A stretch of 61,419 nucleotides of DNA from a virus. The notes beneath the pieces are model-generated. The model was not told the origin of the DNA, did no database searches, and was given only the letters and a program-made list of their open reading frames with translations. Both the position numbers and the translations under genes were made by a program. Positions 15,751 through 48,417 of this stretch are shown piece by piece (within the stretch, counting starts at the first letter, position 1; each line of letters begins with the position of its first letter). The stretch is from the IMG/VR virus record IMGVR_UViG_3300035529_000070, positions 122,114 through 183,532 of that record. One strand, 5' to 3'.

Positions 15751-15939
15751 TTAAAATTTATTATCTTGTTGTTTGAATTTCGGTGATTTCCCTGTCGAAA
15801 TATTGTCTGACTGTAAAGCCTTTTCAACTTCAGTTTTCTGCATTTTTTTACCTGCATTTTTTGGTTGAGGCAAATCAACGTTTTTAAAAGGCTTTACTTT
15901 TTTGATTTTCGCAGTCTTCCAAAATTCATCAATAATCAT
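15751..15939 (-). CDS. Small basic internal-protein candidate with leader MIIDEFWKTA
   Basis: 62 aa, Lys-rich after leader; AAGGTG SD. Confidence 0.6.
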   Translation of the reverse strand: MIIDEFWKTAKIKKVKPFKNVDLPQPKNAGKKMQKTEVEKALQSDNISTGKSPKFKQQDNKF

Positions 15940-15949
15940 TTAAATCACC

Positions 15950-16453
15950 TTAATAATCAATGTTTTGTGATATTACATACATATTATAAGATGCTTCTTT
16001 AATTAAATCTCCTGGAGTTCCGAATAATTCCATATGAGCTCTAAATCTACCCTTTTCCCCAGCGAAACCTTGTGATTCCATATAATAAGAAGCGTCTTTT
16101 TCCATAGCAGCAATTGTGTTAGCAACATCATTTAATTCATCTGATGATAAATTGCTAGCTAAATATTCAGCAACTTTAGCTAAATAACCTGTTTCTTCAT
16201 ATCTTCTTTTAGCAACAGAAGCATTTTTTTCCATTTCTTCTTGTGCATCTTCGAAATTGCCTCTATAAGTTTTTAACATATCGTTAGCTGTTAAAATATC
16301 CAAATAAGCAATTTTCAATAAATCCCTATCAGTATAGTTGTTTTGTGTTATTTCTTCGTATAAAGCAGAAGCAGTTTTTTGTAATTCTTCACCATCTTCT
16401 TGGAAATATTCTGGCATTTCATTACTCACTTGCATAAGACCATCTCTTAACAT
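15950..16453 (-). CDS. Inner-head/core protein with repeated K-x-A sites
   Basis: LQKTA, LLKIA, MEKNA, LAKVA, MEKDA, LIKEA in 167 aa. Confidence 0.6.
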   Translation of the reverse strand: MLRDGLMQVSNEMPEYFQEDGEELQKTASALYEEITQNNYTDRDLLKIAYLDILTANDMLKTYRGNFEDAQEEMEKNASVAKRRYEETGYLAKVAEYLASNLSSDELNDVANTIAAMEKDASYYMESQGFAGEKGRFRAHMELFGTPGDLIKEASYNMYVISQNIDY

Positions 16454-16466
16454 TTAAAAAACCTCC

Positions 16467-18149
16467 TTAATATTTTTCGTTTTTATTATAATCAGGGACT
16501 TCTGGACCTGTCATTGCCCCCATCATTCCACCTATAATACCAGATGCTTTAGAGCCTCTAAGTGAATTTCTTTTAAGCTGTTCATTTAACTCGTCTACGA
16601 CTTGCTGCTGAGCGTTACTCTTATTTGTAGCAGCAATAGCAGATAAAGTATCTCCATCTAGTCCTTTACCTTTTAATTGTCCTTTATATTTTTCCATTTT
16701 AAATCTTGCATTTCCGGCAGATATTGCTCCTCCGGTAGCTGCCCCTAAAGCAACACTCTTTAATCTTGATCCCATATATTGTTTCCTAGCTTCATTTAAT
16801 CTTTTTTCTTTTTCTGCATTTGTTATTTTACCTTGTTCATACATGCTTTTAATTTCATTTTGCCTTTTTTTATAAGCAGAATTTTCTGAAAAACCAGTTA
16901 TAGCTCCAGAGGTTGCAGCGCCAGTTATAGCTCCTTTGGCGCCAGAATATAGAGGTATATGCTTTGAATTTTCAAAAAAAGAGTCAATAGTTTTCCCCAT
17001 CGCATTAGCAGCTACTTTTTCAAAATAATCTTCATCTATTATATTATGATCTAAAGCAGTTTTAATTAATTTGGCATTATTTAATGTATCTTCTTGAAGA
17101 TTAGCGATTTTATTGAACCCTTTTGACACCTCATAAACATTATATAATAACTTTTGTTGTTCGTCGGTTATAGAGCCGGTTTCTAAAACAGATGCAATTT
17201 TCTCCTGCTTTTTTCTATTGTTAATGGACATTTCGGCTGTTTTAATATCAGATCTGATAGTATCTTTAAAATAGTTTAAATTTGCTATTTTCATCAAAGA
17301 CTCATATGTTTTATCAGCCCCTCTTTCTTCAACTTCATTTTCTATAGCTTTTTTATAGGCTAATTTTTCATATCCTCCATCAGATTTAATTCCTTTTAAG
17401 ATATTCTTTAGATTTTCATCATTCATATGTTCAGATGCAGTTTTATTAAATAAAGCTTTTTTTGCTTTCTCAATTATTTTTTGAATGATTTTCTTAGCTT
17501 TACTTTTTTCTTCGTATTGTAGATTTTCTTTTTCTATTTCAGAAATCAGAATAGCTTCTAATTGTTTAGGAGGTATTTTTTGAATAATTTTTTTTGTGTT
17601 TTCTTCTATTTCTCTTACTTTCATTTTTTGCTGCATATCAGTTACTCTGAATTCATCTTCAGCTAATTTTATATGATCTACAGCTCTATTTACATCTTTT
17701 AAAGATAAAGTTTCTGCAAAATAATCTCTTTTTGTTTTTTCTTTTTTGTTATCAGATGCAGTTTTTTGTATTTGAGGTTCAACCCAATCGTCTACTTTAC
17801 CCCAATCTATATCATCCATTAGCCAATCATCTTTATTTAAAGTTTCAGGTGTATATTCTTGTTTGATATTAGTACTCATAGATACTTTGTTTGGGCCTTC
17901 CCCGGTTCTAATATATTCCATAACATTTTCAATTCTAGCCATAGGAAATTCCACTTGATTATTTTCAAACATTTTTATTTGTATTAACTGATTAGATCTT
18001 TCAACAAGCCTTTTAACCTCATTATGATTTAATCCATTATCGACAGATAATTTAGCAATAATAACATCAGGGGTTGTCGCTGAGTTAGCTAAATAATTTT
18101 TCGCAACTGCCGAAGCCAATAAATCAATTTGAGTTTTTAAATTAGCCAT
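16467..18149 (-). CDS. Large inner-head/ejection protein candidate: K-x-A-rich coiled region plus C-terminal glycine zippers
   Basis: IQKTA, FNKTA, YEKLA, LMKIA, FNKIA, LIKTA, FEKVA; GAKGAITGAATSGAITG, ALGAATGGAISAG, GIIGGMMGAMTG. Confidence 0.55.
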   Translation of the reverse strand: MANLKTQIDLLASAVAKNYLANSATTPDVIIAKLSVDNGLNHNEVKRLVERSNQLIQIKMFENNQVEFPMARIENVMEYIRTGEGPNKVSMSTNIKQEYTPETLNKDDWLMDDIDWGKVDDWVEPQIQKTASDNKKEKTKRDYFAETLSLKDVNRAVDHIKLAEDEFRVTDMQQKMKVREIEENTKKIIQKIPPKQLEAILISEIEKENLQYEEKSKAKKIIQKIIEKAKKALFNKTASEHMNDENLKNILKGIKSDGGYEKLAYKKAIENEVEERGADKTYESLMKIANLNYFKDTIRSDIKTAEMSINNRKKQEKIASVLETGSITDEQQKLLYNVYEVSKGFNKIANLQEDTLNNAKLIKTALDHNIIDEDYFEKVAANAMGKTIDSFFENSKHIPLYSGAKGAITGAATSGAITGFSENSAYKKRQNEIKSMYEQGKITNAEKEKRLNEARKQYMGSRLKSVALGAATGGAISAGNARFKMEKYKGQLKGKGLDGDTLSAIAATNKSNAQQQVVDELNEQLKRNSLRGSKASGIIGGMMGAMTGPEVPDYNKNEKY

Positions 18150-18181
18150 AAAATCACCCTCTTTAATGTCTTTTCTTTTTT

Positions 18182-18190
18182 ATTATAGCA
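18182..18190 (-). promoter_or_regulatory. Extended -10 promoter (TGCTATAAT) for the head operon
   Basis: TGnTATAAT ~30 nt upstream of the 18149 start; similar elements at 7623-7631, 28204-28212, 36164-36172. Confidence 0.55.
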
Positions 18191-18206
18191 TTAACGTTAA
18201 AATGCA

Positions 18207-19889
18207 TTAGTAATAGTCAACTGATTCTTGAGGTATCCCAAAATCTCGTTCCTCTAAATGGGTATAAGCGTCAGGTGGTAAGGGTTCTTGAGATATTCTG
18301 GCATCGTATGGATCAATACGTCCTGTCCCTATACATGCTGCTAAATAACAAAAATTTAAGGCATGAAACGCATCATCAGGTTTCCCTTTTTCATGGGCAT
18401 AATATATTTGCCTTTGTTTCTCATTATAATCCTGATAAATATTCAAAAAATCTTCAGCAAAATTTTCCCATATCTCATATTTTGGGAATAAAATTCTTCT
18501 TTCTTTAATTCTTGACATAGTGTTAGTCATTGACTGCGTTCTACTTACTATATATTTGTATCCCTCTTTATCCCATCTAATTAATGTTTTAAGGTTTCCA
18601 TTTAAAGAAAACTCTAAAACTGAATCTCTTTCTGGGTTTTTCTGAACTAAATCCCTTCTCAATCTTGAGTTTATCCCTCCTGCTCCAATTCCCCAATCAA
18701 CGCCTACATATACTACTTTAAATAATTGAATTAATTTTAGTAAATCATTATGTACAAAATTCATTTCAGATTCTTTACCTTTATATTTTTTCATATATAC
18801 TACTCTAAATATGCCCTTAGAATCAAACCCGCCTATAGTAACAACAGTTAGAGATTCTAACCCTTCTTCTTTAGCAGAATATGTTGCCCAGTCTACCCCC
18901 ATATACAATGGTTTACCGTAGAACATTGAGCTATTATATGCCATATCCATCTTTCTATTCTCAGATGACATTCTCAAGATATCTTCACTCAAAGGAGTCA
19001 TAGCATCGTCAAAAGGTAAAGCTAATACTTCATTATGAAATTTATCTCTATCATAATTTTCCTTTTTATGTATTATATCATCCCAATCCACTGTAGGAGA
19101 TAATACTTGTGGTACTCTAATTCCAATAAAATATGCATCTTTAGGATCAACCATATTAACCCATTTTCCGTTTTCTTTATGAATATCTTTTTTACAATCA
19201 GGGTTATTACATATTAATCCCTTAGGGCCTATATTATCTTCATTTATAATATTCCATTTACCGCAATGAGTACATTTTATAGCGAACTCAGATTTTGTAC
19301 TCTCGTTCCATGTATCTTCAATTGGATTTCTAGATTTTTTTGGGGTTCCTGTATAGAACCTAAATCTATACTCTGAGCCTGACAAAGTTTCAGCAATAAT
19401 AGGTATATTTTCAGTAAGCAAATCCTGAATCTCATCTAAGCCAATCATATCTGCAGATATACCCCTAATATGGTCTGCGGTGAGATAAGAGCTTCTCAAT
19501 ATAATCTGCGAACCTGTACTAAAATCTTTTTGGAAAACATTATCTGTAGAAGATTTTGATTGCATATAAAACCTTTTTATATTAGGAGAAAATTGAATAA
19601 ATTGTCTAAGTTTTTGTGATGAAAAAATTTTTACTTGGTTTAAAGTTGGATTCACATGTAATATTTTGAAAAAAGGTTTAGTTGATGTATCAGTTACATA
19701 CTTAGAAGCTAGAGTTACTGACTTGCCAACTTGCCTTCCACATTTAGCCAAAAAACGTGGATGATCAAAATCGAAAAAAGGCCTAAAAAATTCTCGGCCT
19801 TTTAAACTAAATTGTTTATTATTAAATCTAAGCATTGCTTCGGCAAATTGAGATTTATATATTGTTATTTTTTTATTTTTTGTATCCAT
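18207..19889 (-). CDS. terL: Terminase large subunit
   Basis: Walker A GRQVGKS, Walker B GLDEIQD, coupling motif YTGTP, CxxC insert, RNase H-like GVDW ... PDDAFHA. Confidence 0.9.
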   Translation of the reverse strand: MDTKNKKITIYKSQFAEAMLRFNNKQFSLKGREFFRPFFDFDHPRFLAKCGRQVGKSVTLASKYVTDTSTKPFFKILHVNPTLNQVKIFSSQKLRQFIQFSPNIKRFYMQSKSSTDNVFQKDFSTGSQIILRSSYLTADHIRGISADMIGLDEIQDLLTENIPIIAETLSGSEYRFRFYTGTPKKSRNPIEDTWNESTKSEFAIKCTHCGKWNIINEDNIGPKGLICNNPDCKKDIHKENGKWVNMVDPKDAYFIGIRVPQVLSPTVDWDDIIHKKENYDRDKFHNEVLALPFDDAMTPLSEDILRMSSENRKMDMAYNSSMFYGKPLYMGVDWATYSAKEEGLESLTVVTIGGFDSKGIFRVVYMKKYKGKESEMNFVHNDLLKLIQLFKVVYVGVDWGIGAGGINSRLRRDLVQKNPERDSVLEFSLNGNLKTLIRWDKEGYKYIVSRTQSMTNTMSRIKERRILFPKYEIWENFAEDFLNIYQDYNEKQRQIYYAHEKGKPDDAFHALNFCYLAACIGTGRIDPYDARISQEPLPPDAYTHLEERDFGIPQESVDYY

Positions 19890-19891
19890 AT

Positions 19892-20080: not shown

Positions 20081-20082
20081 AA

Positions 20083-21402: not shown

Positions 21403-22554
21403 TTAATTAACAGCTATGAAAATCAACAAATCAACATCTACCGTTGAACTTTGAGGAAAATCATAAGCATATATTTTGATTTTATATCCATCCCAAGCAG
21501 CCATAACATAATTAGGTGGTACATTTTTATTATCATTAACATTAATACCGACTAGCTTTTGCTGTACCATTATTCCTAATATTTCGCCAAAATTTTTCCC
21601 ACTTTCCAGCAAATTATTTTCTAAAGATAATTCAAATTCAACATATCTTCCTCTGCTAACAGATGTGTTGAGTTTTACTACTTTAGCTAATTGATTAGAT
21701 TTGATTTTAGTAGTAGTGGCATCCATAGATGAACCGGTTTTAAATCCGTTCTTATTATTTGGATATTGTAAATTCAAATAAGCCTCTGGCCTGCCAGGGT
21801 CTATATTGCTAGTTGCATTTATATTATATACGTCTACATATATATAATCGGATAAAGGTATAGGTTCATCAAAAGATAGGAATTTTTTCATGGCCGATTC
21901 TTTTGTATCATACAAGTCATCATGATCATGTTGTTTCGGTGCAAAAGATGTTTGCGTGAATAAATTCCCTGCATCGTCTTTTAATGCTGTAGTGTCTTCA
22001 ACAATATCATCTTTCTTATAATAATCAGACCCATGATTATGCTCTTTCATTGCCAAATCTTGTACACGAGTCCCATCTATTTCAACTGCATAAGGAACAA
22101 CATCATCTTTCTTATAATATTCTGGGTGATCATGTTCTTTTCTGGCAAAAGTTGAATGAGGAACCCCAGATAAATTTTCTGTCACTGTTATAATTTCATC
22201 TTTAGTAACATAATTATGAGTATGGTCTTTAGCGGCTAAATCTTTTGGACCATAATCGTTTATTCCATCAGTAATGTTATAAGCTGATTCTACAGTTTCC
22301 CCTTTCACTACATACTCATCATGTTCATGATCATTCATTGCTAATTCAGACAATTCTTTATTTAGAATTCTGTATGAATATTGTGAATGAGGGACCATGT
22401 GTTTTGAAATAGAAGGTAATAACATTTCTGATGTTTTAAAAGAATTAGCAACGTTTACAACTTCAGACATGTTAATAGCCGAATCTTTAGATGCTTTCAA
22501 AATATAATTCAGTATTTTTAATTTTTGCGATTCATCATTGATTAATCTCCCCAT
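21403..22554 (-). CDS. Tail fibre-like protein with His-x-His repeats
   Basis: DHEHDEY, DHTHNY, EHDHPEY, EHNHGSDY, QHDHDDLY spaced ~28-36 aa apart. Confidence 0.6.
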   Translation of the reverse strand: MGRLINDESQKLKILNYILKASKDSAINMSEVVNVANSFKTSEMLLPSISKHMVPHSQYSYRILNKELSELAMNDHEHDEYVVKGETVESAYNITDGINDYGPKDLAAKDHTHNYVTKDEIITVTENLSGVPHSTFARKEHDHPEYYKKDDVVPYAVEIDGTRVQDLAMKEHNHGSDYYKKDDIVEDTTALKDDAGNLFTQTSFAPKQHDHDDLYDTKESAMKKFLSFDEPIPLSDYIYVDVYNINATSNIDPGRPEAYLNLQYPNNKNGFKTGSSMDATTTKIKSNQLAKVVKLNTSVSRGRYVEFELSLENNLLESGKNFGEILGIMVQQKLVGINVNDNKNVPPNYVMAAWDGYKIKIYAYDFPQSSTVDVDLLIFIAVN

Positions 22555-24833
22555 TATATTTCCTCCTCAAAAGTAATTAGGGTAAATGGTACCCCATAAT
22601 TATTTACTGTGATCTCTTTTCCTGAAGAACTTGCTGAAAAACCAATTTTGCTCCAATCTATATTTGAGTTACTATTTATTAATGTATATGATTTATCACC
22701 ATTTTTTAATAAATGTGGCTCTATATATTTTGGGACACCTGTTTTAGCTACCCAAGAATTCAATGTCTGTACATAGTCTTTATCCATATTAAACTTTCCT
22801 GTTGGCTGTAAAAATACAGTTGATGGATTTGAATTATCTTTTTCTATTTTCAAATAATTTAGCATTTGGTATGGAGTTTTTATGATAGGTGTATGTCCTA
22901 TCAGCCTTCTCCATTCAGTATTAAACTTAGTCGATACTTCTTTAGATAATAAAATCAAGTTGCCACCTTGAGGGTTTGTTGCTGCAAATTTAGCAATAGG
23001 TACAAAAGGCTTCCGCAGTATAAACATATCATACATGCCAAATAAAAATTTAGCAGGCATCCAATCTATTTTAAAAAGAGTCATGTCAATATACATATGA
23101 AATAAAGTAACAGAATTCAAAACATTAAATAAAATTTGATCCATTAGAGAAAAAATATAATTTATACCCCAACATAAAAAATAATCTATAACTAACAGCA
23201 ATACAATAAACAAATCAAATATTTTCTTAAAGAAATTTTCAACCACCAAACTCAAAGTTTCTGTAATATATTCAAAAATATTAGATTCTTCTCCTAAGTC
23301 TGGTTTAGCAGGAACATCATAATACCAATAATATTCATTCTTATTTAAACCTTTTAAATATAATTTGTCATATCCACTTGGATAATTAGTTCCATTGTTA
23401 TACCAGCTATCTATATTAGAATAAAAAGATCCAATATGGTTGGTGTTTTTTAAAGTATGACCTGCAGATGTTTTTAAATTACCTACCCAACTTTTTGTTG
23501 TGGATTTAAATGAAGAAACAGATTTAGAATCTGTATAACTTCTACTATTTTTATTATACAAATATTGATTATCTCCAGATGTTTTTATTTCATCTTGTTT
23601 TTTCCCAGATTCTTTAAAACATTTATACATCGATCTATGCACATCAACATCAACAGTTTGATTATCTGGTGTATATTCTATAATTGGTTTAGGCCCTATT
23701 TCTTCCAATTTATTTTGTGTAGCTTTATTAGCAAATAAAATTATAAATTGAGTGGAAGCATTTTTACCATAAATATCTTTTAAATTTACCCCATCTAATC
23801 TTCCAGAAGAATTTATTAAACCTAGTAATAAAGAAGATGTATTGTCATTAGCAGGAATAGAAGGTTGATTAAATAAATTCCCTAAATCTAGCCCCAACTT
23901 TTTGTTCAAATCTCCAGGCATTGTTGCCCAATCATCATTACCAGAAAATACATTTCTCCTCCACGCGTTGTGAAAATCATTTAAACTAATATATCTGAAA
24001 ATATCTCCTGAAGATACCGTTGCAATTTCCCGTTCGAATCTATCAGTAGTTAAAATATTTGTATCAATAGTATCTATATTTTTTCTAACAGTAGTATTAT
24101 CCGGTATGTATCTGTAAATATTAACTTTCATTTTTTGGCTATTCGATTGTATTCCTTTAGAATTTTGTATACTAAAATCTTTTGGAGCAAAGATATCTTT
24201 TGCAAGTTCTTTTGTCATATAAATACTATTATGATTATGATTTTTTTTAGAAATATCATTTGGCTTAATAATTATAGTAGATGGTACTATGAAATCATTT
24301 ATCTGATTATAACGAGTTGCAAAAATACCATTTGCATATTTAGTTTTACCTTGAAAAGGAACAAAATCATTATGGAAATGTTGTTGCTCAGCAAAATATA
24401 TCTTTGGTGATATATAGGAATTATTATCAACATTATATAGTTTGTTTGCTAAAGAAAAATTTGTTTTATTGTTTTTTACATATTGATTATGACTATGACT
24501 ATATCCAGAAAAATCGTTCTTAGAGATTCCATTAATATCATCTTGAGTAAGTTTAACATTAATAGCTTTTTTAGTATATTCATTATGGGAATGTACCTTT
24601 TTAGACAAATCATCTAAAACGTATTCATCTAATTTAAAAGTTTTGTCAGGTATATCACCTTTTTCCAAGAAATCATGGGTGTGTTCTTTTAAAGAAAAAT
24701 CTACTGTTTGGCCTAAAATATTTTTGATATTTTTTGCAAATAATGTATTGAATTTCTTTATTTTAATTATCTGATTAAAAGAACTATATATAATCTTTTT
24801 TATAATATCATTAATCATCGTTATTCTCCTCAA
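22554..24833 (-). CDS. Tail fibre-like HxH-repeat protein, paralogue of 24811-28182, with hydrophobic segment
   Basis: EHTHDF, HSHNEY, HSHNQY, HFHNDF, HNHNSIY; FAPKDFSIQN; C-term NYGVPFTLITFEE. Confidence 0.6.
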   Translation of the reverse strand: MRRITMINDIIKKIIYSSFNQIIKIKKFNTLFAKNIKNILGQTVDFSLKEHTHDFLEKGDIPDKTFKLDEYVLDDLSKKVHSHNEYTKKAINVKLTQDDINGISKNDFSGYSHSHNQYVKNNKTNFSLANKLYNVDNNSYISPKIYFAEQQHFHNDFVPFQGKTKYANGIFATRYNQINDFIVPSTIIIKPNDISKKNHNHNSIYMTKELAKDIFAPKDFSIQNSKGIQSNSQKMKVNIYRYIPDNTTVRKNIDTIDTNILTTDRFEREIATVSSGDIFRYISLNDFHNAWRRNVFSGNDDWATMPGDLNKKLGLDLGNLFNQPSIPANDNTSSLLLGLINSSGRLDGVNLKDIYGKNASTQFIILFANKATQNKLEEIGPKPIIEYTPDNQTVDVDVHRSMYKCFKESGKKQDEIKTSGDNQYLYNKNSRSYTDSKSVSSFKSTTKSWVGNLKTSAGHTLKNTNHIGSFYSNIDSWYNNGTNYPSGYDKLYLKGLNKNEYYWYYDVPAKPDLGEESNIFEYITETLSLVVENFFKKIFDLFIVLLLVIDYFLCWGINYIFSLMDQILFNVLNSVTLFHMYIDMTLFKIDWMPAKFLFGMYDMFILRKPFVPIAKFAATNPQGGNLILLSKEVSTKFNTEWRRLIGHTPIIKTPYQMLNYLKIEKDNSNPSTVFLQPTGKFNMDKDYVQTLNSWVAKTGVPKYIEPHLLKNGDKSYTLINSNSNIDWSKIGFSASSSGKEITVNNYGVPFTLITFEEEI

Positions 24834-27800
24834 AGCTTATCAAAGTAAATGGTGCACCATAATTGCTTATTGTAGTAGTTAACCCTGAATCAACACTAAA
24901 ACTTAAATATTTTTGATCTAAATTGTGTTTACCTTGGATAGTTTTAACAGAATATTCAGCGTTGGTAATCTTAGTAGTACGATAGTATTTTGCAATAGGA
25001 ATTTTATAGCTCCAAAATTTGTATATTTTAGCTAAATCATCTGCATCATTGAAATTATAATTACCTGTAGATGAGATGAAATCAATCCCATTGTCTTTAT
25101 TAATTTTAACATTATTTAAAACTGTATACGGAGAATTAAAAACTTTTTGTACTCCAGTAATTCTATTCCAATCTTGATGAAAATTAGTTGTATATTCTTT
25201 TGAAAATATAACTATATTATTACCTTGAGGGTTACTACTTATGAACCTTGAAATAGGAACGAAAGGTTTTCTGTCTATAAAAGATGCAACTAAAGGCCGC
25301 AGTAACCCAATGAAAGGATATATCTTCCAATTAACTAATGTAATGGTTATAGTGGTGAATAATAAAGGTATATTTACTTGAATTAATATCCAGAAAACAA
25401 AAGTATAAAATGGTTTTATTATATTGATTAAAACATTATCAAGAAACGCCAATATGTAATTAAAACTCCAACATAAAAAATAATCTAAAAACAATAAAGC
25501 CATTATGAAAATATCAAATATTTTATTTAGCAAATTATCTGCTAATTTAGAAGCTGCTTCCATAATATATTCAAAAACATTTGAAGTTTCTCCATAATCT
25601 GGTTTTGAAGGCACAGAATAATGCCAATAATACTTTCTCTTATCTAAAGCTTTAAATTCAGGCGTTGGTGCCTGTATTTTATTGCTTAATAATTGTTTTT
25701 CCACAACATATTGTTTATCAGAAGAAACAGTTTCAGCTTCCTCCAACACTTGGTAGAAAGTGACATCATTGTTTTCTTTTCTAACCAAAGCAAAAATGGA
25801 ATTCCCATCGCTTACAGCCGGTATAGTAACTTGTGTTTGATATTTTCCGGTCTGGCTATTAAACCAAGTATAAAGGGGATATTCTTTTCCTTCTAAAAAG
25901 AAATGATATTCTTTTTCATTTATTTGAGAAATAGGATCTTTGAAATAGTAAACGCCATTCTGACCAGGCCCCGATAAAGTTTTCTCATATGAACCTTTCC
26001 CTTCAATACTCATCACACCAGCTTCTAATATAATATTACTTGCAGAAATACATAATCCTTGATCGCTATTTCCATCGATACATTCTTTTATTCCCGTACT
26101 AAAAATCTTAAATTCAGTAATATGCTGTTGATTAATATCTGGCATAATTTTCGCAACTAATGTTATTGATTTCCCAAGCTCACCTGTAAATCCTTTGATT
26201 CTATATTGGCTTTTTTCTCTTCCATCTGGATGAGCTATATATTCCACCTCTGCCTTTGGGACACCTCTTATTTCTGAATCGACATATCTATAATTAACAG
26301 GGACTGATAAATAGCCATTTTCTGTTACTACAGTTTCTCCTTTTACCTGAAGGGTGTTATTGTATTCTTCTAATTGGTAATAAGAACCAGGTGGCACATT
26401 GTCATATGCTTTCAAAGACTTTAGTTCCAGAACATCTTTCCAATCATTTTTTACATGATCATAATAAGTATATTGCCACCTTCCAGTAGGAGAAAATCCA
26501 GCATCAAAAGTTATTCTTTGATACTGCTTTTCATAAGTAAATCCATATATTTCAGAAGAACTTTCAGATAGTTTAAATGCAAATTCAGTGTCGTCATAAT
26601 CATCAAAAAAACTATGATCTAATAAATATACAAATTTTCTTCCAGATATTGACTTAATATCATCTGGATTATATTCTTCACCATCTGGTGTTGGTGCTCT
26701 AAAAAATATATGGCCATCTAATTTAGCTAAAGTTGCTGGAGCCCCAGCTGCTGAAGTAGATCCAGAAGTTCCTCCGGTAAAAGTTGAAAAAGGATAAGTA
26801 CCCCTGTTTGAATAAACAGACAGGCTTTTTAGCCAATTATCCAATTTATTTAGGGAAGGAGTTCTTGAATAAGTTCTTGTTTTTTTATTTGAATCTGCAA
26901 AATCATATACATATTTTTCTTGTGGATTTAACTCTACTTGGCCTAAATCCGGATCATTTTCTGTATTCAATACAGAAGCTTTGAAACTTTCATAAACAGG
27001 TGCGGTTAAAACAGAACTATCTAAATCATATTCTACTAAAGTTTTTGGACCATCATTCGTCAATTTGTCATAAGTACTTTTATTAAAAAAACCAACTAAA
27101 AATTTAGTAGAAGCAGCAGATCCAAATACATCATTATATGATTCCCCGTCTATTTTTTTATTTGTGTCCCATAAAATCCCATTCATCATATCCCCTGTGT
27201 TTTCATTACCAGGAATAAAAGGTTGATTAAATAAGTTTTGTATGTCTAAATTCATAATGTCATTCAAATCGCCAAATGGTTTACTGCTACTTATAAAATC
27301 TGTGATAGTGTTTCTGTTATAACCATAAGCAAATTTTTCTGCATCCATGTATTTGAAAACACTTCCTGCAGGTCTACTTAAATATTTAGTTTCAAATTCT
27401 TTTGTGGACATAAAATCAACAGGAAAAGTATTTACATTATGCATTGTTTTTCTGTCTGAAGGCTTATATCTATATATAGAAATCTTATACTTTCTATCGT
27501 CCATAAATCCTGAAGCCCTATTTATTTGAAAATCTTTTGGGGCAAAAATAGAAAGGCATTGGTTTTTAGTTAAATAAAAATTGTTATGATGATGTTCCCT
27601 CAAAGAAATATCCTCAGGATATAATACTTTTTTTGTATATTCTAAATTCCCTTGTTTATTAATATATATTATGCTATATAAACCTTTAGCATAAGTTGAT
27701 TTTCCAGAGAATTTTATAAAATTATTATGTATATGTTCTTTTGAGTCGATTGTTCTTTTCACAGAATAATAATTCCCTTGTTTGTACATTTTGTTTACTG

Positions 27801-28182
27801 TTGTGAATTTTTTCTTTTCTCTTTTAACATAAAAACTATGTACATGAGATTTTTTGGAAAGTTGTTGAGCTCTTATACCTTGAATTTCATCTTCTGTTTT
27901 TTTAACATTTAAATTGTTTTTCAAATAATCATGAGAATGATTTACAAAACTAAAATTTTTTATAGCTTTATTATTTATATTTATTGCCTTTTCAGCTATT
28001 TCCTCTTTTTTTAAAAAGTCATGATTATGATTATAACTTGAAAAATTTGGAGAAGAATATTCTCCATTATATTTTATTTTATTTATATTTATAGACCTTA
28101 AAGACCCGAATAGATGATGCTTTATGTTTATGTAAAAATATTTAAAATTTTCAATTATTTTTTTAGCAATAGGATTTACCAT
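24811..28182 (-). CDS. Large tail fibre-like HxH-repeat protein with central insertion
   Basis: HNHDF, HSHDY, HVHSF, HIHNNF, HHHNNF; FAPKDFQIN; C-term NYGAPFTLISFEE. Confidence 0.6.
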   Translation of the reverse strand: MVNPIAKKIIENFKYFYINIKHHLFGSLRSININKIKYNGEYSSPNFSSYNHNHDFLKKEEIAEKAININNKAIKNFSFVNHSHDYLKNNLNVKKTEDEIQGIRAQQLSKKSHVHSFYVKREKKKFTTVNKMYKQGNYYSVKRTIDSKEHIHNNFIKFSGKSTYAKGLYSIIYINKQGNLEYTKKVLYPEDISLREHHHNNFYLTKNQCLSIFAPKDFQINRASGFMDDRKYKISIYRYKPSDRKTMHNVNTFPVDFMSTKEFETKYLSRPAGSVFKYMDAEKFAYGYNRNTITDFISSSKPFGDLNDIMNLDIQNLFNQPFIPGNENTGDMMNGILWDTNKKIDGESYNDVFGSAASTKFLVGFFNKSTYDKLTNDGPKTLVEYDLDSSVLTAPVYESFKASVLNTENDPDLGQVELNPQEKYVYDFADSNKKTRTYSRTPSLNKLDNWLKSLSVYSNRGTYPFSTFTGGTSGSTSAAGAPATLAKLDGHIFFRAPTPDGEEYNPDDIKSISGRKFVYLLDHSFFDDYDDTEFAFKLSESSSEIYGFTYEKQYQRITFDAGFSPTGRWQYTYYDHVKNDWKDVLELKSLKAYDNVPPGSYYQLEEYNNTLQVKGETVVTENGYLSVPVNYRYVDSEIRGVPKAEVEYIAHPDGREKSQYRIKGFTGELGKSITLVAKIMPDINQQHITEFKIFSTGIKECIDGNSDQGLCISASNIILEAGVMSIEGKGSYEKTLSGPGQNGVYYFKDPISQINEKEYHFFLEGKEYPLYTWFNSQTGKYQTQVTIPAVSDGNSIFALVRKENNDVTFYQVLEEAETVSSDKQYVVEKQLLSNKIQAPTPEFKALDKRKYYWHYSVPSKPDYGETSNVFEYIMEAASKLADNLLNKIFDIFIMALLFLDYFLCWSFNYILAFLDNVLINIIKPFYTFVFWILIQVNIPLLFTTITITLVNWKIYPFIGLLRPLVASFIDRKPFVPISRFISSNPQGNNIVIFSKEYTTNFHQDWNRITGVQKVFNSPYTVLNNVKINKDNGIDFISSTGNYNFNDADDLAKIYKFWSYKIPIAKYYRTTKITNAEYSVKTIQGKHNLDQKYLSFSVDSGLTTTISNYGAPFTLISFEENNDD

Positions 28183-31289: not shown

Positions 31290-31301
31290 AGGAGGGATAA
31301 T

Positions 31302-33792: not shown

Positions 33793-34050
33793 TTACATAC
33801 CGAGTGCACCTAGTTGATTTATTGTATTTTTTAAACTAGCATTTTCTTTTATTTGTCTTGCAGCTCTGCCCATATCTGAGTAAGTATTATATTGGTTTTT
33901 TGGTTTGCCTATTTGTTTTAATTTCCTTTTCCATTCTTCAGGTATGGCTTTATCGTACAACAGCTTTCCTCCAACGGCTCCTCCTAATACAGCTATAGGA
34001 GCAGCATAATTTTCTAAATTAGCTGTTTTTATAAATTCATCTCTTATCAT
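33793..34050 (-). CDS. Small internal-protein candidate with leader MIRDEFIKTA and Gly-rich hydrophobic helix
   Basis: APIAVLGGAVGGKLLY after leader; AAGGAAG SD. Confidence 0.6.
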   Translation of the reverse strand: MIRDEFIKTANLENYAAPIAVLGGAVGGKLLYDKAIPEEWKRKLKQIGKPKNQYNTYSDMGRAARQIKENASLKNTINQLGALGM

Positions 34051-34053
34051 AAT

Positions 34054-36144
34054 CTACACTTCCTTTAATAAGAATGTAGTAAACGGTAATCCAAAATTGT
34101 ACACCGTAAACCCTTTTGGTTCAAATTGTCCAAAAGAATATCCTAAATTATTTAATTGTTCTTGATTGTATTCAAATGAATAATCATATATTTTTTGAGA
34201 AAAAGTCTTCGTTCTATAAGAGCCTATAGCTTTAAATATTTCTTCGTTGTCTAAAGTACCAATTGAAAAAGCAGGGGATAAAAATCCAATTCCATCTCTT
34301 ACAAAATCACTGTTATTTATATTAACTCTATTTATAACCATTTGAGATTTTATAGGCTCGATTAAAAAACTTTCGTATAAATCTTTTTGCCCAGTAAATT
34401 CTTGAATCTTTTGTAAAATAATAGATTCAGGTGTTATATTTATAGATACATTTAAAGAGATTTGATTCATGCATTTTTCTATTTGTGTTCTTAAACTTCC
34501 ATTAATACTAAATTGTAGTGGAACTAAATAATCAGTTGTAGTATTATGGTAATTTCCTCCAGTAACTTCTATGCTGGCCAAGTTAGGAAGGTACATTTTT
34601 CCTTTTGTTTGAGCTTTATATAAATCCAAATCAAAAACAGGGCTAGTTCCTTTGTTATAAGCACTTCTAATATCGTATCTAAAGATTCCTATCTTATATT
34701 TCTTGTCAAAGTCTTGAATACCTCTGGCGTTTTGTATACTAAAATCTTTTGGCATAAATATATCTTTTGCAACAATACTACTTATATAGTAATCTTCATG
34801 CAAATGAGATTTTGGTGATATTTGTGAAGCTGTATATTGATTACCATATATATCAGATAAACTAGAACTATATCTATGTAGTCCATCCTTTGAAGAGTAT
34901 TCTGAATGTACATGGTTATATTTTGAAATAACGCTCGGCTGTACAGATTCATCATGAAATGTATTTGATTTTTCTATTACATGATCTAACTCAAAAAAAG
35001 TTTTTATACCAGAAATAGAATTAATTGTATCTCTTACTATAGGTACTTTAGTTTTGAAATTATCCACTTCATAATAACTACCATTTAAAACTATATATCC
35101 GTTATCCACATATTTTATCTCATATTCTCCGAATAAATTACTGATATTTACAGGCAACACAAGGTATAATTCTTCATCTTCTGTTGTGCCTCTTATACAT
35201 ACACCATCATTTATAAACTCAAATTTTTCTCTATCATTTACTAATTCTATATTTTTTTTATTTCCTTTATTATCAAATACTTCTATAATATTAGAAACAT
35301 ATTCTTTTGGAATATTTGTAAGCCAAATATCTTTTCCTAAATATTCTTTATTTATTTTGTATCCTATTGTAGAACCCGGCAACACATCTGCTAAATTTTT
35401 AGTAAGTTCTAAATTCCCATTGTTATAAATCAATGGTATAGTTTCAGAATATAAATCTTCTCCATTCAAATAAATTCTAAATAAGGCATATTCTCTTTCT
35501 AAAAAATCACCATCGATTGCTTTTAATTTCATAACTTCCTTATATCTATCATTATACGCATAATTAAATTTAACATCTTGCACTTGGATATTAGAATAGT
35601 AATTTTTGTTAAAAAAGAATAAATTCTGATTTAAATAACCTGTATAGTCTTTTCCTCCTATATGTATAACATATTTGGAATTTGGATAATTAGAAGTATC
35701 GTTTAAAACTTTATGTCCTATACCTTTATTTGCTGTCAAAGTGTTATTTTCAAACAATAACTTTTGCGTTTTTAAATAATATTTATGAAAATGTTTTTTA
35801 TTTGGCGGAACTATCTCCTCCAAATTTCTATTGGTAATATAATCTTTATTTAATTGTGTATATACATGATTATTTAAATATTTAGAATGGTCATGTTCTC
35901 TGGGCAAAAAATCTTTATAATAATATTCTTTTCCAGATTGTTTTATTATAGAATTCGAAGTATAAGCTATTGTATTTTTAGATAAAAAAGTATTATGTTT
36001 ATGATTGGTTGAACTATATTTCACCATCTTCGGTGATATATTTGATGTTTTATTGGTTTTATATACTTGGAATTTTTCTACATGAAATAAATTATTCAAA
36101 ATATTATAAGACTTTTTAATTATACTTAAAAACGGATTAATCAC
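34054..36144 (-). CDS. Fourth HxH-repeat fibre-like paralogue, displaced from the tail cluster
   Basis: HKHNTF, HDHSKY, HFHKY, HVHSEY, HLHEDY; FMPKDFSIQN; C-term NFGLPFTTFL. Confidence 0.6.
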   Translation of the reverse strand: MINPFLSIIKKSYNILNNLFHVEKFQVYKTNKTSNISPKMVKYSSTNHKHNTFLSKNTIAYTSNSIIKQSGKEYYYKDFLPREHDHSKYLNNHVYTQLNKDYITNRNLEEIVPPNKKHFHKYYLKTQKLLFENNTLTANKGIGHKVLNDTSNYPNSKYVIHIGGKDYTGYLNQNLFFFNKNYYSNIQVQDVKFNYAYNDRYKEVMKLKAIDGDFLEREYALFRIYLNGEDLYSETIPLIYNNGNLELTKNLADVLPGSTIGYKINKEYLGKDIWLTNIPKEYVSNIIEVFDNKGNKKNIELVNDREKFEFINDGVCIRGTTEDEELYLVLPVNISNLFGEYEIKYVDNGYIVLNGSYYEVDNFKTKVPIVRDTINSISGIKTFFELDHVIEKSNTFHDESVQPSVISKYNHVHSEYSSKDGLHRYSSSLSDIYGNQYTASQISPKSHLHEDYYISSIVAKDIFMPKDFSIQNARGIQDFDKKYKIGIFRYDIRSAYNKGTSPVFDLDLYKAQTKGKMYLPNLASIEVTGGNYHNTTTDYLVPLQFSINGSLRTQIEKCMNQISLNVSINITPESIILQKIQEFTGQKDLYESFLIEPIKSQMVINRVNINNSDFVRDGIGFLSPAFSIGTLDNEEIFKAIGSYRTKTFSQKIYDYSFEYNQEQLNNLGYSFGQFEPKGFTVYNFGLPFTTFLLKEV

Positions 36145-36742: not shown

Positions 36743-37435
36743 TCAAAGCACATCCCCACTATAATGATGTTCTATAAAATATTTATATGTATACGGAAAT
36801 TTTTCCTCAAAAAACTTAGCCAGCGCTTTGGCATATTCTTGTATTTCCCATTGAGCATGTGAATCTGCCCTTAAGTCGAGAAAGTGCATTAACGCCCTTA
36901 AATTTATAGTTATATAAAATTCAGTGTATTGCCCAACAGGTAAAACCATTCTAGCCATTTCTCTGGCAACTCCATGTTCAAGTAGAGTTTTATAATCTTG
37001 ATAAGACCTTTCATAAGAAGCCTCTATTAAAGCTATATCCTGTTGTTCCAGTTCTTTCTGATTTGTCCTAAAACTCCCCTGTTTATTTTTTGTATCTTGA
37101 GCCCTTATATGATCTGGTATATAAAATTCATCCGCTTGTTTACTGGTATATCTTCTGCTCATCTCGTTTGGAGACATTCCTATTCTATGCCTAAACCATT
37201 GTCTGACAACAAAAATAGGTGCTTTAACATGAAATTTCATTATCAAATGTTCGAATGGGCTAAAATGTCCTTGATCCATTAAAAACGAAGAAAGTTTTTT
37301 ATCTTTATCTGTCATAGTTCTATCTTCTTTTTGAGTATCGTTACCATATGACACCCTTGCAGCTTCTACCGCTGCTTTATCATCGCCCATTGAATCAATA
37401 AATTCAACAAATCCTTTGTCTAAAACATTTATCAT
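36743..37435 (-). CDS. thyX: Flavin-dependent thymidylate synthase
   Basis: AARVSY, GHFSPFEH, KAPIFVVRQWFRHR...SRRY, AREMARMVLP, LRADSHAQWEIQ. Confidence 0.95.
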   Translation of the reverse strand: MINVLDKGFVEFIDSMGDDKAAVEAARVSYGNDTQKEDRTMTDKDKKLSSFLMDQGHFSPFEHLIMKFHVKAPIFVVRQWFRHRIGMSPNEMSRRYTSKQADEFYIPDHIRAQDTKNKQGSFRTNQKELEQQDIALIEASYERSYQDYKTLLEHGVAREMARMVLPVGQYTEFYITINLRALMHFLDLRADSHAQWEIQEYAKALAKFFEEKFPYTYKYFIEHHYSGDVL

Positions 37436-37491
37436 ATATTACATCTCCTTTTATTAGAAATAAAGCCGGCCTTTTGGCCAGCTTATTATTA

Positions 37492-40400
37492 TTACAAACA
37501 TTTAGCAGTTCCACAATTGGTACAAGTAACGCAACCTTCGGTTTTTCGCATACTATTTACTTCACCACACGCAGGACATACAGTGTTGCCTTCATCATCT
37601 AAATACACATTGCTTTTTGAGTCGTATACCATATCTTTCATTTCTTCCTTAGAATAATGTGTTTTTTTGGTTTTCTTTTTAATGGTTACATTACTCAATA
37701 TTTCTGGGATCTCCTTAAAAGCATCTTCTAATGCTTTACCTATTTCAGGGACGTAAGATCCTTTTGTTTTTTTAAGTTGTTTAACAATTTCCTCTTGAGA
37801 TACACCAGCTCTCAAAGCCACTGAGGACAATCTTCCAATAACTTCTGCAGTATCATGCCCGTTAGATATAAATATTTCAGCAGGAGACAACGTATCTATA
37901 TCAGCAGAGACATTAATATAAGTGGTACCTTCCTGAGTTTTAACTTTCTTGTTAATTGCCGGCATAGTTTCAAGTCTTGGTTTCGGTCTTATCTTGTGAT
38001 TTTGATCTAAAATAAATGAATATCCATCAACCATATGCTGGGTTTTTTTATGTTCTTCCTCTTTGTTTTGGTCTTTATCTTTTTTCTTCGTTTCTAACAC
38101 TTGCATACTTAAACTTCCATCCCTATAAATAGTGATCCCTTTTATGAAATATTTTAATGCAGCAAGATAAATATTTTTTACATCTTCTATAGTTGCTTCA
38201 TTTGGCATATTTATAGTTTTAGAAACAGATGCATCTATATATTCCTGAAAAGCAACTTGCATATAAAGATGTTCTAAAGGTTTAATGGATTGAGCAGTTA
38301 CGAATACTTTTTTCATCTTTTCATCTACACCATTAAGATTAGAAAGATCATTTAATTTCATTATTTCATCTTCAATAGCAACTAACTCATCTACTGTTTT
38401 ATAATCTTCAACCTTTTCTGCTTCTATTTGAAATTTTTCTACTTTTTCCATTAATTCTAAATAATATTCATTATCGTGTTCTTTAATATACTTTTTGAGC
38501 ATTTCATTTATATACAACATAGGTACTCTTTTACCATTTTTATTCAATAAAAATCTCGTATAAGCTAAGCTGAAATTAGGTTCCAATCCAGCAGATACAT
38601 CAGAAATATTAGACAATGTTCCTGTAGGAGCGATTGTATTTACTTGAACATTTCTTTTCCATCTTCTAGCAGTAGTAGCAAAATGTTCTTTAATTAGTTC
38701 GTTAAGTTGTTTCAAATTGTCAGTTACATCTAATACTTCATTTGATTCAGTATGCATAGGAAAAGGTATATGTCCATCTACATATCTTGACTTATCAAAT
38801 GACCTGAAATTGCCTTTTTCTTGTCCAAGTTCAGAACTTGTCAAGTGGGCGAAATAAGCGATAGAAGCTTGTATTTCTGCTGCTAAATTTCTGGCCTGTT
38901 TATCTCCATAAGGTATCTCTTTTTCATATAATAAATCGGCAAATCCCATAAGACCTAATCCTATAAATCTTTGATCTTTTGCTGTTTCTGCCAATTCATC
39001 TAAAGGATACATATTTACTGAGACAACATCATCTAAAAACGTAGTTGTATGTTTAACAACTTCATGGAAAGCGTCAAAATCTTTTGTTCCTACAACATAA
39101 AACTCTGGATATTTTTCATTTATAATTTTTAAATTCAAACTACCTAAGTTACAAGAGCCATGGTTAGGAAGTGTCTCTTCACCACAATTATGGCATATAA
39201 ATCCATTAACTACACCAGCATGTGTTTTATCCATAGAAAAGTCGTATACTGGCTCTATACCATTTTCAATTATTTCTGTTACATAACCATAAGGAACGAT
39301 TGAAGGATCTTTTTCTTCTGAAAATTTCGAATCAATATATTCAAAAACGGCTATCTTTCTATTAAGCATATCTTTTGCTTCCATCCAATCTTGTGTTTCA
39401 TGATCAAATACTTTATGTTCCGGTGTTACAGTTAACGACCCTAAGTTATCAGTAACCAAAGTTATAGTTTTCTTATCTCCAGTTTTAAATACATCTGCTT
39501 TAACATACTCATTATCAAAAGGAGACCACACATTAACAGTTTGACCATCCAATTCGCCTATACTTATTTCTCCTTTATCGGTTAATATTTTTTCGTCATA
39601 ACCAAAACATGGATTAGTTGCAGTTACCGGAGTATTGTTTGCGTTAGCATAATATTCATTGTGTCTGCCTAAAAATAATAATCCAGGGTCTCCTGCTTTC
39701 CAAGCATTTTCTGCCATAGTATTTAGCATGGATTTGGCAGATAATTCTCCATATTTCGTACCTTTAAAAGTCAAATCATAATTTTCTCCATTTTGATATT
39801 TCTCTAAAAAATCTTCTGTGTTATCTAAATTTACAGAAATATTGAAGTAAGATAAAACGTTATTGCCATTATTATTTTTTTTAGCGTGGATAAAATCCAT
39901 AATATCAGGATGGTCATGTTTCATAACGCCCATCTGAGCTGCTCTCCTTTTACCACCTTGTTGAATTGTAGAAGCACTGGTGTTATATACGCTCATAAAG
40001 CTAATAGGCCCAGATGAGTATCCTGAAGTACCATGAACAACAGCACCTTTAGGTCTCAAAGTGCTGAAATCATATCCGACCCCACCACCGTATTTTAATA
40101 TTAAAGCAGATTTTTTAACATATTCAAAAATTCCATCCATGGAATCATCTTCTGTATAATTAACGAAACAGGCAGATAACATATTATGCTTAGTTCTATT
40201 GTTGTAAATTTTCATATAATCATCTAAATCCATTAGATCAATATCTTTTCTGAACCATTCAATTGGCATCCCTTCGCCAGCATTAAACATTGTTGGAGAA
40301 TTAGGTAAAAAAATTCTTTTATTTATTAACTCAAAATAAATTTCTTCTTTTCTTTTAATTTCCTTTAATAGATCATCACCTTCATAGAAACCATCAGATA

Positions 40401-43787: not shown

Positions 43788-43806
43788 TTGGTATATATTA
43801 TATGTT
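43788..43806 (+). promoter_or_regulatory. Phage promoter-like motif, copy 3
   Basis: TTGGTATATATTATATGTT. Confidence 0.6.
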
Positions 43807-43824
43807 AATCTTACACATAAAGGA

Positions 43825-44748: not shown

Positions 44749-44766
44749 GAGAGGAGATGTATTTAA

Positions 44767-46774: not shown

Positions 46775-46822
46775 TAAAAGAGGGCTTTATGCCCTCTTAA
46801 TTTTATAAGGAGGCATGGCAAT

Positions 46823-48103
46823 ATGCCAAATAAAATAAATTTAAAATATGTTTATGTACCTATAATAAAAGATAGTTTAAAAATTGGGAATGACACTTAC
46901 GATTGTATGTTAGATGATCTTGATTTAATCCCCTTTTATGATGTACAACATTATAACAACCAAGAAAGGCTACAAATAGCAAATACTTTAACTATGTATC
47001 AAATTGCCGAACATTTTTTTTCTGAGTTAGAATTAGGAATAGAGAGCTCTGAAATACAAGAGAAAATACAAGATGATTTGAATGGTAATTCTTTATTCGA
47101 AAAAAATGGAGTTCTACAATCCTTGAAAGAATGGTACAAAGAACAAAAAATAGAATTTATAGTTTTGGATGTAGAAAAAGAAGAAAAATTCAAAATATGG
47201 GAAATAAATTTAAACTCGGATTTTAATAATGTATTCACTAGTATTGATAAGCTTCCTAAAGATGGAGACTATTCTATGAGTTTAGAACGTTTACAACCTA
47301 TTTTGAATCCAAATAAACAATATGGATATATTGAACCAAAAGATATAATAGATATTAACGGAATAGAAAGAACTCGTGAGTTTGAAGTTGTATCAAGTGA
47401 AGCTATAGAATCTAAATTTATTTTGTGGTATCTTGTAGAAGAATTAGGTATATTAGAAAAAGAGGAAGAATTTGGATCTTTGAATTATAATCCTGAAGAA
47501 CTTGAAGTTGAATTTAAGTTAGATGGTGAATCTATAAGCCAAATCTGGTCTCCTTATAGAGGCTGGAACTCTCCAGATAATTACGCTATAAATATCAAAT
47601 ATAAATATGATGAATTAGTAGACAGCGGAGAAGATGATGATCAGTATGAAGAAACTGAAGCATTATATGAAACTATTATACAAGATTATATGAATTTGTT
47701 GGAAAATGATTACGATTTTTCGCTTTTAGTTCTTGGACGCAGTGGAGGATATTTTGGATTCGAAGTTGGTATCGAAATATTTGAAGCTATTAAAATTATA
47801 TTGAATAAAGAAGTGCTAGAAGTAGTTCTTAGCGATTATGGACCTTTCTCTATACAAAATTTTTATGATAATGTAATCGAAGAAACTGAAGCTTGTTTGG
47901 AAGAAGTTGAAGAAATAAGCGATGGAGACTTCGATATTGTAAATGTTGAATATACAGAAGATTTTATTAATTTCAATAAAGATGTATATACATATATAAA
48001 ACATTTAAGCTCAGGCCCAAGATTAAAAAGCTATGATGAATACATAGCTTGGGAAGAAGGAACTTTAGAAGAATATAGGCAAAGAAAAATTGAAGAGATA
48101 TAG
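46823..48103 (+). CDS. Highly acidic hypothetical protein
   Basis: 426 aa, D/E-rich, GRSGGY motif; AGGAGG SD. Confidence 0.65.
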   Translation: MPNKINLKYVYVPIIKDSLKIGNDTYDCMLDDLDLIPFYDVQHYNNQERLQIANTLTMYQIAEHFFSELELGIESSEIQEKIQDDLNGNSLFEKNGVLQSLKEWYKEQKIEFIVLDVEKEEKFKIWEINLNSDFNNVFTSIDKLPKDGDYSMSLERLQPILNPNKQYGYIEPKDIIDINGIERTREFEVVSSEAIESKFILWYLVEELGILEKEEEFGSLNYNPEELEVEFKLDGESISQIWSPYRGWNSPDNYAINIKYKYDELVDSGEDDDQYEETEALYETIIQDYMNLLENDYDFSLLVLGRSGGYFGFEVGIEIFEAIKIILNKEVLEVVLSDYGPFSIQNFYDNVIEETEACLEEVEEISDGDFDIVNVEYTEDFINFNKDVYTYIKHLSSGPRLKSYDEYIAWEEGTLEEYRQRKIEEI

Positions 48104-48110
48104 TAAAGAA

Positions 48111-48140
48111 AAGAGGGCGCTCAGCCCTCTTTTTTTACCT
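48111..48140 (+). terminator. Bidirectional terminator, AAGAGGGC/GCCCTCTT family
   Basis: AAGAGGGCGCTCAGCCCTCTTTTTTTACCT between convergent genes. Confidence 0.75.
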
Positions 48141-48417
48141 TCACAACGATTTCTTGGCCCTCTCTAATAGGTTTAGTCGTTCTTAAAATATAACGCCCTC
48201 TATTGACCGTATACGTAGAGTTAGGATTATCATTATCTATAGTTATATTCTTACCAAGTAATGTATCTTGGAATTTCTTGTTGTGCAAATCTCCTACAAA
48301 CTGTCCGGGTTTTATATCAGTTCTAGAGACAATCTTTTTCTGTCCATTAGTAATATCGTTTTCTATAATTATTCTGTTTTTCATCCCAGAAGTTTTTATA
48401 AATTCTTTATGAATCAT
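48121..48417 (-). CDS. Degenerate SET-like domain protein with leader MIHKEFIKTS
   Basis: IVSRTDIKPGQFVG ... NPNS ... ILRTTKPIREGQEIVV matches SET pattern (FATRDIKKGEFI...PN...A.RDI..GEEL); NH and terminal Tyr missing. Confidence 0.55.
   Translation of the reverse strand: MIHKEFIKTSGMKNRIIIENDITNGQKKIVSRTDIKPGQFVGDLHNKKFQDTLLGKNITIDNDNPNSTYTVNRGRYILRTTKPIREGQEIVVKVKKEG

Follow-up and report, generated by a model that had tools for sequence, protein, structure and literature searches.

A candidate capsid-targeting leader on dispersed genes of an oil-field myophage

Capsid-targeting peptides have been proven only in phage T4, where the capsid-targeting sequence (CTS) of IPI, IPII, IPIII, and Alt is removed by the prohead protease gp21. 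The T4 CTS is a propeptide of 10 to 20 amino acids, and the same motif is found on core proteins and at the N-terminus of the capsid protein (PMC7411985, PMC5694885). In phage SPN3US, gp53 and gp54 have shared N-termini on diverged cargo (PMC5694885), and the prohead-protease sites described for T4, phiKZ, and SPN3US all end in glutamate (E) (PMC7411985, PMC5694885). We analyzed a window of 61,419 nucleotides (positions 122,114 to 183,532 of IMG/VR record IMGVR_UViG_3300035529_000070) from the 183,532-bp genome of a myophage. This oil-field phage is uncultured and is known here from its genome sequence. The original prediction was that three small genes in the window share a ten-residue leader that loads diverse cargo into the phage head, and we consider it likely that this leader is a T4-CTS-like capsid-targeting propeptide. 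In both T4 and the phage described here, a short N-terminal propeptide is carried by dispersed non-core genes, and the prohead proteases have the same fold. However, this is not a T4-like phage, and its capsid protein is of the phage G/Arash type rather than the gp23 type. T4 cuts after E ([IL]-x-E), whereas the site here is hydrophobic-x-K-x-A/S, with leaders that end in alanine (A) or serine (S). The E-F common to the T4 CTS and the tag is offset by one position and may be due to chance, and searches that could miss such short proteins found no homology between the tagged proteins and the T4 internal proteins. The claim of an undescribed system was too strong, since the principle is that of T4; what is new is the sequence of the tag and the site of cleavage.

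The three open reading frames and their leaders were found exactly where predicted, all on the minus strand and each with an ATG start after a purine-rich ribosome-binding site; a plus-strand reading was rejected because those frames are full of stops. They encode proteins of 62 amino acids (15751 to 15939; leader of ten codons at 15910 to 15939, ending K-T-A), 85 amino acids (33793 to 34050; ten codons at 34021 to 34050, ending K-T-A), and 98 amino acids (48121 to 48417; ten codons at 48388 to 48417, ending K-T-S). All three leaders are kept in relatives: orthologues of the 62-residue protein (81% and 46% identity) keep the leader and have a 5-residue insertion exactly behind K-x-A, the orthologue of the 85-residue protein in the relative G001 has a leader ending in K-T-S, and the 81%-identical homologue of the 98-residue protein retains its leader. 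Scanning the whole genome, we found nine genes that match M-I-x-x-E-F-x-K-[TS]-[AS], where 9e-5 would be expected from composition (7e-4 for the looser pattern originally proposed), and three further genes that open with shorter K-x-A leaders; a relative carries nine leader variants. Among the nine tagged genes, the 30 nucleotides of the leader are 81% identical at the DNA level, compared to 37% for the 30 nucleotides upstream and 33% for the 30 that follow, so it is precisely ten codons that are shared, as expected of a portable tag. The bodies of the three window proteins do not match one another, which agrees with their description as otherwise unrelated, and some of the six tagged copies elsewhere in the genome prove to be related to one another via relatives. 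Thus, a short N-terminal peptide is shared by dispersed and otherwise unrelated proteins.

The tag ends in hydrophobic-x-K-x-A, and this motif is enriched about 7-fold in the head proteins, with 49 occurrences in eight proteins versus 6.9 in shuffles (maximum, 12), in a head set chosen partly on the motif itself. By comparison, 41 tail and baseplate proteins contain 14 occurrences versus 18.8 in shuffles, and the motif is absent from the portal, sheath, tube, and terminase. The T4-type [IL]-x-E is not enriched in head proteins (39 observed versus 39 expected), and the phiKZ-type [SAG]-x-E is depleted (36 versus 51). All head genes discussed here lie on the minus strand. The major capsid protein (11011 to 11961) has a single site, F-E-K-T-A, whose last letter is residue 32 (K-T-A at 11874 to 11866), and from which a 32-residue propeptide is predicted. 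Head-core proteins of 167 residues (15950 to 16453; scaffold-like), 560 residues (16467 to 18149), and 178 residues (13327 to 13863) contain five, seven, and four sites, respectively, the last four all within the first 60 residues; the 560-residue protein is glycine-rich after its final site (residue 380). Sites are also present in an acidic scaffold-like protein of 266 residues (12506 to 13306) and, seven times, in a 362-residue protein encoded two genes upstream of the portal (3113 to 4201). [quoted passage not shown] In relatives, the N-terminus of the 167-residue core protein bears the leader in the same register and is a possible source of the tag; an Atlas search with this protein gave no usable match.

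The phage also encodes a prohead protease with the T4 gp21/herpesvirus assemblin fold (13863 to 15299, minus strand; head maturation protease in PHROG), in which H95 and S148 are invariant and which has a Cys/His insertion. Its structural model matches T4 gp21 (Z = 11.0) and the VZV and HCMV proteases (Z = 9.5 and 7.1). K-x-A flanks the catalytic domain at residues 27 to 29 (15221 to 15213) and 217 to 219 (14651 to 14643), and in 150 homologues K27 and A29 are conserved at 94 and 91% and K217 and A219 at 87 and 83%, while the linkers are otherwise variable. This conservation, together with the enrichment in head proteins, supports the prediction that K-x-A/S is a prohead-protease site. Across 308 pooled sites, the residue following A is S in 26% (log2 enrichment of 2.2). 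Herpesvirus assemblins cut at Ala|Ser, a specificity with which the Ala|Ser bond predicted here agrees; we know of no lysine (K) requirement at P3 and no tagged accessory cargo family in that system. Like phiKZ gp175 and SPN3US gp245, the protease is predicted to process itself and to share one motif with many head proteins, but those proteases cut after E in [SAG]-x-E and act on propeptides that are mostly longer than 100 residues. A predicted complex of the protease with residues 1 to 32 of the 85-residue protein scored 0.43 (best control, 0.01). Of 80 solved pairs, 58 attained this mark, as did 2 of 110 mismatched pairs; among these, only 7 solved pairs and both mismatches scored 0.60 or under. 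The contacts in the complex agree to at least 45% and the partner pLDDT is at least 43, and the model points weakly to binding of this N-terminus.

We propose that M-I-x-x-E-F-x-K-x-A would form a short amphipathic helix that joins the prohead scaffolding core, whose proteins would themselves be studded with the same helix-plus-K-x-A unit. The packaged protease would then cleave hydrophobic-x-K-x-A/S just behind its small residue. In this way it would release itself, cut the core proteins to pieces, take 32 residues off the capsid protein, and strip each leader. Basic bodies would remain with the DNA inside the head and might well leave with it at infection; glycine-rich bodies may help to build an entry conduit, and the remaining bodies would be accessory cargo with fast turnover. 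The steps of this scheme differ in strength. Cleavage of the leader is very likely, and the cut probably falls after A. The tagged proteins are likely packaged, loading into the head being a reasonable reading that draws indirect support from the virion proteomics of Salmonella phage Arash, and their ejection has about an even chance. An anti-defence role of the cargo is unlikely, and the three window bodies gave no defence-related match in family databases.

The capsid protein and protease group with those of Arash, Bacillus phage G, Rhodococcus phage E3, and the cluster C mycobacteriophages; the proteases (phage G gp19, Arash gp222, E3 gp77, and those of cluster C) are homologous, with 29 to 46% identity, and K-x-A is repeated in the head proteins of these phages as it is here. 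The leader sequences differ by lineage. Distinct families ending in K-x-A occur on seven genes in the relative G013 and two in G015, and cultured phage G has its own family, on at least 22 genes (18 among called genes versus 0.8 in shuffles). In Arash, G014, G015, and G018, N-terminal K-x-A is not in excess across the genome, so not every member of the clade has a shared leader. Arash gp95, gp96, gp97, and gp100 are basic proteins encoded far from the structural block, three of them with an N-terminal K-x-A. By spectra per residue, they rank 3, 2, 6, and 7 of 27 well-identified proteins from outside the structural block (PMC10585845, Table 2), in a permissive virion preparation in which 116 of 252 proteins were detected (PMC10585845). 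Coverage of 98 to 100% is reported for several K-x-A proteins, including gp95 (99%) and gp223 (100%) (PMC10585845), and at face value would mean uncut N-termini; however, this column is doubtful because 100% coverage is elsewhere in the same table assigned from two peptides. The only solved structure found was that of the phage G capsid protein, which lacks an N-terminal site. A literature search, beyond whose reach lay the main phage G proteomics paper, returned no K-x-A cleavage site or leader for the clade, and the Myrna capsid paper says nothing about cleavage.

It is improbable, though less so than the other alternatives, that the protease does cut at K-x-A but the leader has no targeting role; cargo would then enter the head through its basic or glycine-rich body, and the leader would be only a removable, perhaps inhibitory, propeptide copied between genes. 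Many cargo proteins of the clade have only 4 to 8 residues ahead of K-x-A, which is not long enough for an address, the bodies are consistently basic, and gp96, which has no N-terminal site, is abundant in Arash virions; yet positions 2, 5, and 6 (I/L, E, and F) are conserved over the nine genes and relatives, more than a cut site requires, and the phage G leader sits on acidic and enzymatic bodies too. Still less probable is that the tagged proteins are a transient core, scaffold, or docking family that is not delivered to the next host, with K-x-A serving as a helix-helix contact or removal mark. Such a role would fit the 62-residue gene, which lies within the head block beside a core gene that opens with the same kind of helix, as well as the leader profile, whose best internal matches fall in head-core proteins, and small unfolded bodies could diffuse from the prohead. 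However, core proteins with three to nine sites would be cut to pieces, whereas most of the nine tagged proteins have a single N-terminal site, at which a cut would leave the body whole, and the SET-like, GNAT, ParB, and SLOG domains among tagged bodies of the clade are not scaffold material. We regard it as highly improbable that the repeat acts at the level of DNA or RNA, as a translation-initiation cassette that was copied or as a recombination scar, with an incidental peptide: same-residue codon pairs share a codon in 168 of 235 cases (pairs that are not independent) versus about 132 to 135 expected from codon usage, which points to a copied 30 nucleotides, but the upstream DNA is unshared, no shared promoter or UTR was found there (the best k-mer had P = 0.001 before correction, and promoter-like sites were no more common than in shuffles), synonymous codons vary among leaders, the same peptide word recurs within head proteins, and other lineages encode leaders ending in K-x-A with different DNA.

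The capsid-targeting reading also allows a wider one, plausible but short of an even chance, in which a clade from 140-kb actinophages to the 500-kb phage G has a protease whose specificity, hydrophobic-x-K-x-A|S, is undescribed, and each lineage copies its own tag onto acquired genes, yielding virion-delivered effectors. If so, these would be the degenerate SET-fold protein and glycine-rich peptides here and ADP-ribosyltransferase-like, GNAT, ParB, and SLOG domains in phage G, and injected cargo could be read directly from genome sequence. The K-x-A code would say where the members of a protease family with 831 representatives (E ≤ 1e-30) cut, and would predict which "hypothetical" proteins are head cargo that is active during the first minutes of infection. 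It can be tested in cultured phages, namely phage G (tagged genes and virion spectra) and Arash (sites and a proteome). Efforts to load proteins into capsids would also benefit from a second portable packaging tag. A transposase search for the host of the oil-field phage gave no close bacterial match (best, 54 to 59%).

The tagged bodies are basic and often glycine-rich. With the leader excluded, 11 of 12 have a pI above 9, in keeping with the basic cargo originally proposed (19% of the genome's proteins exceed 9.5), and of the 8 proteins with the highest GxxxG content, 7 carry the tag. A PHROG search with the three window bodies, short enough to be missed, gave no hit. The 62-residue protein is lysine-rich (body pI, 10.1), and its gene is present in the relatives L018 and L204 and was not found in G001. 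The 85-residue protein is basic, with a conserved, weakly hydrophobic GxxxG stretch (residues about 17 to 33) and a variable tail; of the "Gly-zipper membrane peptide" once proposed, the GxxxG stretch stands but the membrane is doubtful, the best 19-residue Kyte-Doolittle mean being 0.97. Family searches with these two bodies gave no match above the cutoff. A terminator-like hairpin lies directly behind the 85-residue gene (33788 to 33772).

The prediction of a SET-like fold in the basic 98-residue protein held up: the Pfam SET match was below the cutoff (E = 0.0013), and an Atlas comparison aligned residues 8 to 96 with phage SET clusters (feature score, 0.94, with 154 of 256 shared; TM, 0.71), consistent with a SET beta-fold. 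A match to fatty-acid-binding proteins (E = 0.03) was judged to be chance and rejected. SET methyltransferases are marked by a SAM-binding N-H-S motif and a terminal catalytic tyrosine. The 98-residue sequence lacks an N-H pair where motif III would lie, and none of the residues past the final E-I-V-V strand is aromatic; the SET-like fold is degenerate, without the SET catalytic motifs. The sole relative found for this gene has the leader; no leaderless homologue was found, and so acquisition of the tag could not be caught in the act. Having no match in G001, the gene is, by sequence comparison, accessory. It is located downstream of ssb, outside the structural block, with a terminator-like hairpin at its end (48133 to 48109), and two public contigs each span it unbroken.

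The three ORFs of the original prediction, encoding proteins of 62 (15751-15939), 85 (33793-34050), and 98 (48121-48417) amino acids, are real, begin with the residues quoted, and all lie on the minus strand. Scanning the whole 183,532-bp phage contig (30% GC, from oil-field and subsurface metagenomes), of which the window is the last third, identified nine genes that start with the leader M-I-x-x-E-F-x-K-[TS]-[AS], versus 9e-5 expected, and three further genes with shorter leaders ending in K-x-A. Outside the window, six full and the three shorter leaders map to contig positions 1625-4120, 22847-24549, 45703-46155, and 101178-101813; most of these bodies are GxxxG-rich, and the genes form small clusters amid early-looking genes.

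The tagged cargo forms a class by shared body properties. The pI exceeded 9 in 11 of 12 tagged bodies, and 7 of the 8 most GxxxG-rich proteins in the genome are tagged. The cargo types originally proposed held in part. The 62-aa body, called a basic peptide, is indeed lysine-rich and had no match in a family search; the 85-aa body, called a Gly-zipper membrane peptide, has a single GxxxG stretch, which is weakly hydrophobic. The SET-like fold of the 98-aa body stood, but the N-H-S motif and terminal Tyr are missing, making an active methyltransferase unlikely. Three large proteins encoded at 22554-28182 and 34054-36144 look like paralogues and contain repeated H-x-H motifs; the 85-aa gene follows one of their genes here, and a different one in the relative G001. 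The window also contains a MoxR-like AAA ATPase gene adjoining a DUF2201 metallopeptidase/VWA gene (30117-32918) and an IS200/IS605 element with TnpA and TnpB (55832-57429).

The head block (620-19889, minus strand) includes, on that strand, the portal (620-2446), major capsid protein (11011-11961), prohead protease (13863-15299), and terminase (18207-19889). By capsid protein and protease, the closest cultured relatives are Salmonella phage Arash and Vibrio phage D69; Bacillus phage G, Rhodococcus E3, and cluster C mycobacteriophages are more distant. The gene directly upstream of the capsid gene (11980-12477) encodes a 165-aa protein that has no K-x-A site and, like phage G gp26, probably serves in cement/decoration.

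The putative cut motif, hydrophobic-x-K-x-A, occurred 49 times in eight head proteins, a set chosen partly on this motif, versus 6.9 in shuffles; the tail and baseplate block had 14 occurrences versus 18.8. A stricter site listing found none in the portal, sheath, tube, terminase, or putative cement protein, and the Glu-ending T4 and phiKZ motifs were not enriched in head proteins. Because the head set was partly motif-picked, the protease offers a cleaner test: across 150 homologues, K27/A29 are conserved at 94/91% and K217/A219 at 87/83%, these sites flank the catalytic domain, and H95 and S148 are invariant. The predicted catalytic domain (pLDDT 86.5) resembled T4 gp21 (Z-score 11.0) and herpes proteases (9.5 and 7.1). 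A conserved Cys-x2-Cys...Cys-x-His insertion in the protease (C158, C161, C172, and H174; residues 158-172 at 14784-14828) is probably a zinc site. The capsid protein has a single K-x-A site, which ends at residue 32 in register with that of Arash. Pooled sites gave the consensus hydrophobic-[EVTI]-K-[TV]-A, and in 26% of them the next residue is Ser; we infer cleavage after Ala, as herpes assemblins cut. When the protease was paired with residues 1-32 of the 85-aa protein, the predicted complex scored 0.43 versus 0.01 for the best control, in a range met by 7/80 solved and 2/110 mismatched pairs, and lends weak support to a protease-leader pairing. A 611-aa protein with nine K-x-A sites (contig 90695-92530) is encoded on the strand opposite to the head block, upstream of a 2612-aa RNA-polymerase-like gene; Arash virion protein gp218 is its positional counterpart.

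We consider it likely that the leader is a targeting propeptide, which would join the prohead core and be cut away by the prohead protease; the basic cargo would stay behind in the head and probably be ejected. It would work like the T4 capsid-targeting sequence (PMC7411985, PMC5694885); however, the Glu cleavage of T4 is not shared here, and this phage belongs to another head lineage. The system is thus not undescribed in principle, but a literature search with incomplete coverage of phage G found no account of the K-x-A site or of these leaders, including those of phage G. That K-x-A is a cut site without any targeting seems unlikely. With a leader profile trained on most of the protein starts that it then scored best, 18/18 best matches were protein starts. 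The best internal matches fell in head-core proteins. A role for the tagged proteins as transient core components is less likely still than a cut site without targeting. A DNA-level cassette is very improbable; DNA likeness is limited to the ten leader codons (37% upstream, 81% inside, and 33% after). Codon sharing in the leaders is somewhat above the codon-usage prediction (168/235 versus about 132), which suggests that the tag spreads by copying.

Consistent with the original prediction, the leader that we read as a targeting propeptide is kept in homologues of all three window genes. It is retained in the 62-aa gene at 46% identity, with an insertion falling exactly on the leader boundary, and in an 81% homologue of the 98-aa gene; relatives of the 85-aa gene keep the leader and GxxxG stretch but not the tail. 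In G001 (185 kb; median protein identity 56%), nine genes carry the tag, and the last leader position is occupied by Ala, Ser, or Gly. This genome, 91% complete, yielded no match to the 62-aa or the 98-aa gene, so the cargo set turns over. A core gene at 15950-16453, which in relatives starts with the leader helix in the same register, may be the source of the tag.

Different leaders occur in other lineages. The relative G013, with the same protease family, encodes seven basic small proteins (18119-18885, 37432-38670, and 126807-131526) that start M-D/N-K-A/P...F-x-K-L, and two proteins of a further lineage, G015, share yet another leader. In phage G, at least 22 dispersed genes start M-(x)-R-L-x-K-x-[ASG] (M-K-R-L-x-K-K-A/S type; for example, NC_023719 28218, 81748, 245994, 401815, and 446709), with 18 among called genes versus 0.8 in shuffles. 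Their bodies include ParB, GNAT, and SLOG domains; several H-G-T-S proteins look ADP-ribosyltransferase-like by eye, recalling T4 Alt, and had no match in a Pfam search. Phage G and Arash make the K-x-A leader reading testable now. No shared leader was seen in the Arash genome. Arash gp95, gp96, gp97, and gp100 are basic and distant from the structural block, with an N-terminal K-x-A in three of the four, and all four are among the seven highest-ranked of the 27 well-identified proteins from outside that block in the published proteome of a permissive virion preparation (PMC10585845). The coverage column of that proteome, which is unable to show cleavage, at face value speaks against it. These four virion-detected, Ala/Gly-rich proteins are encoded in a tRNA region (OQ632216 54867-58971), and gp96 contains an ART-like H-H-G-T-S segment.
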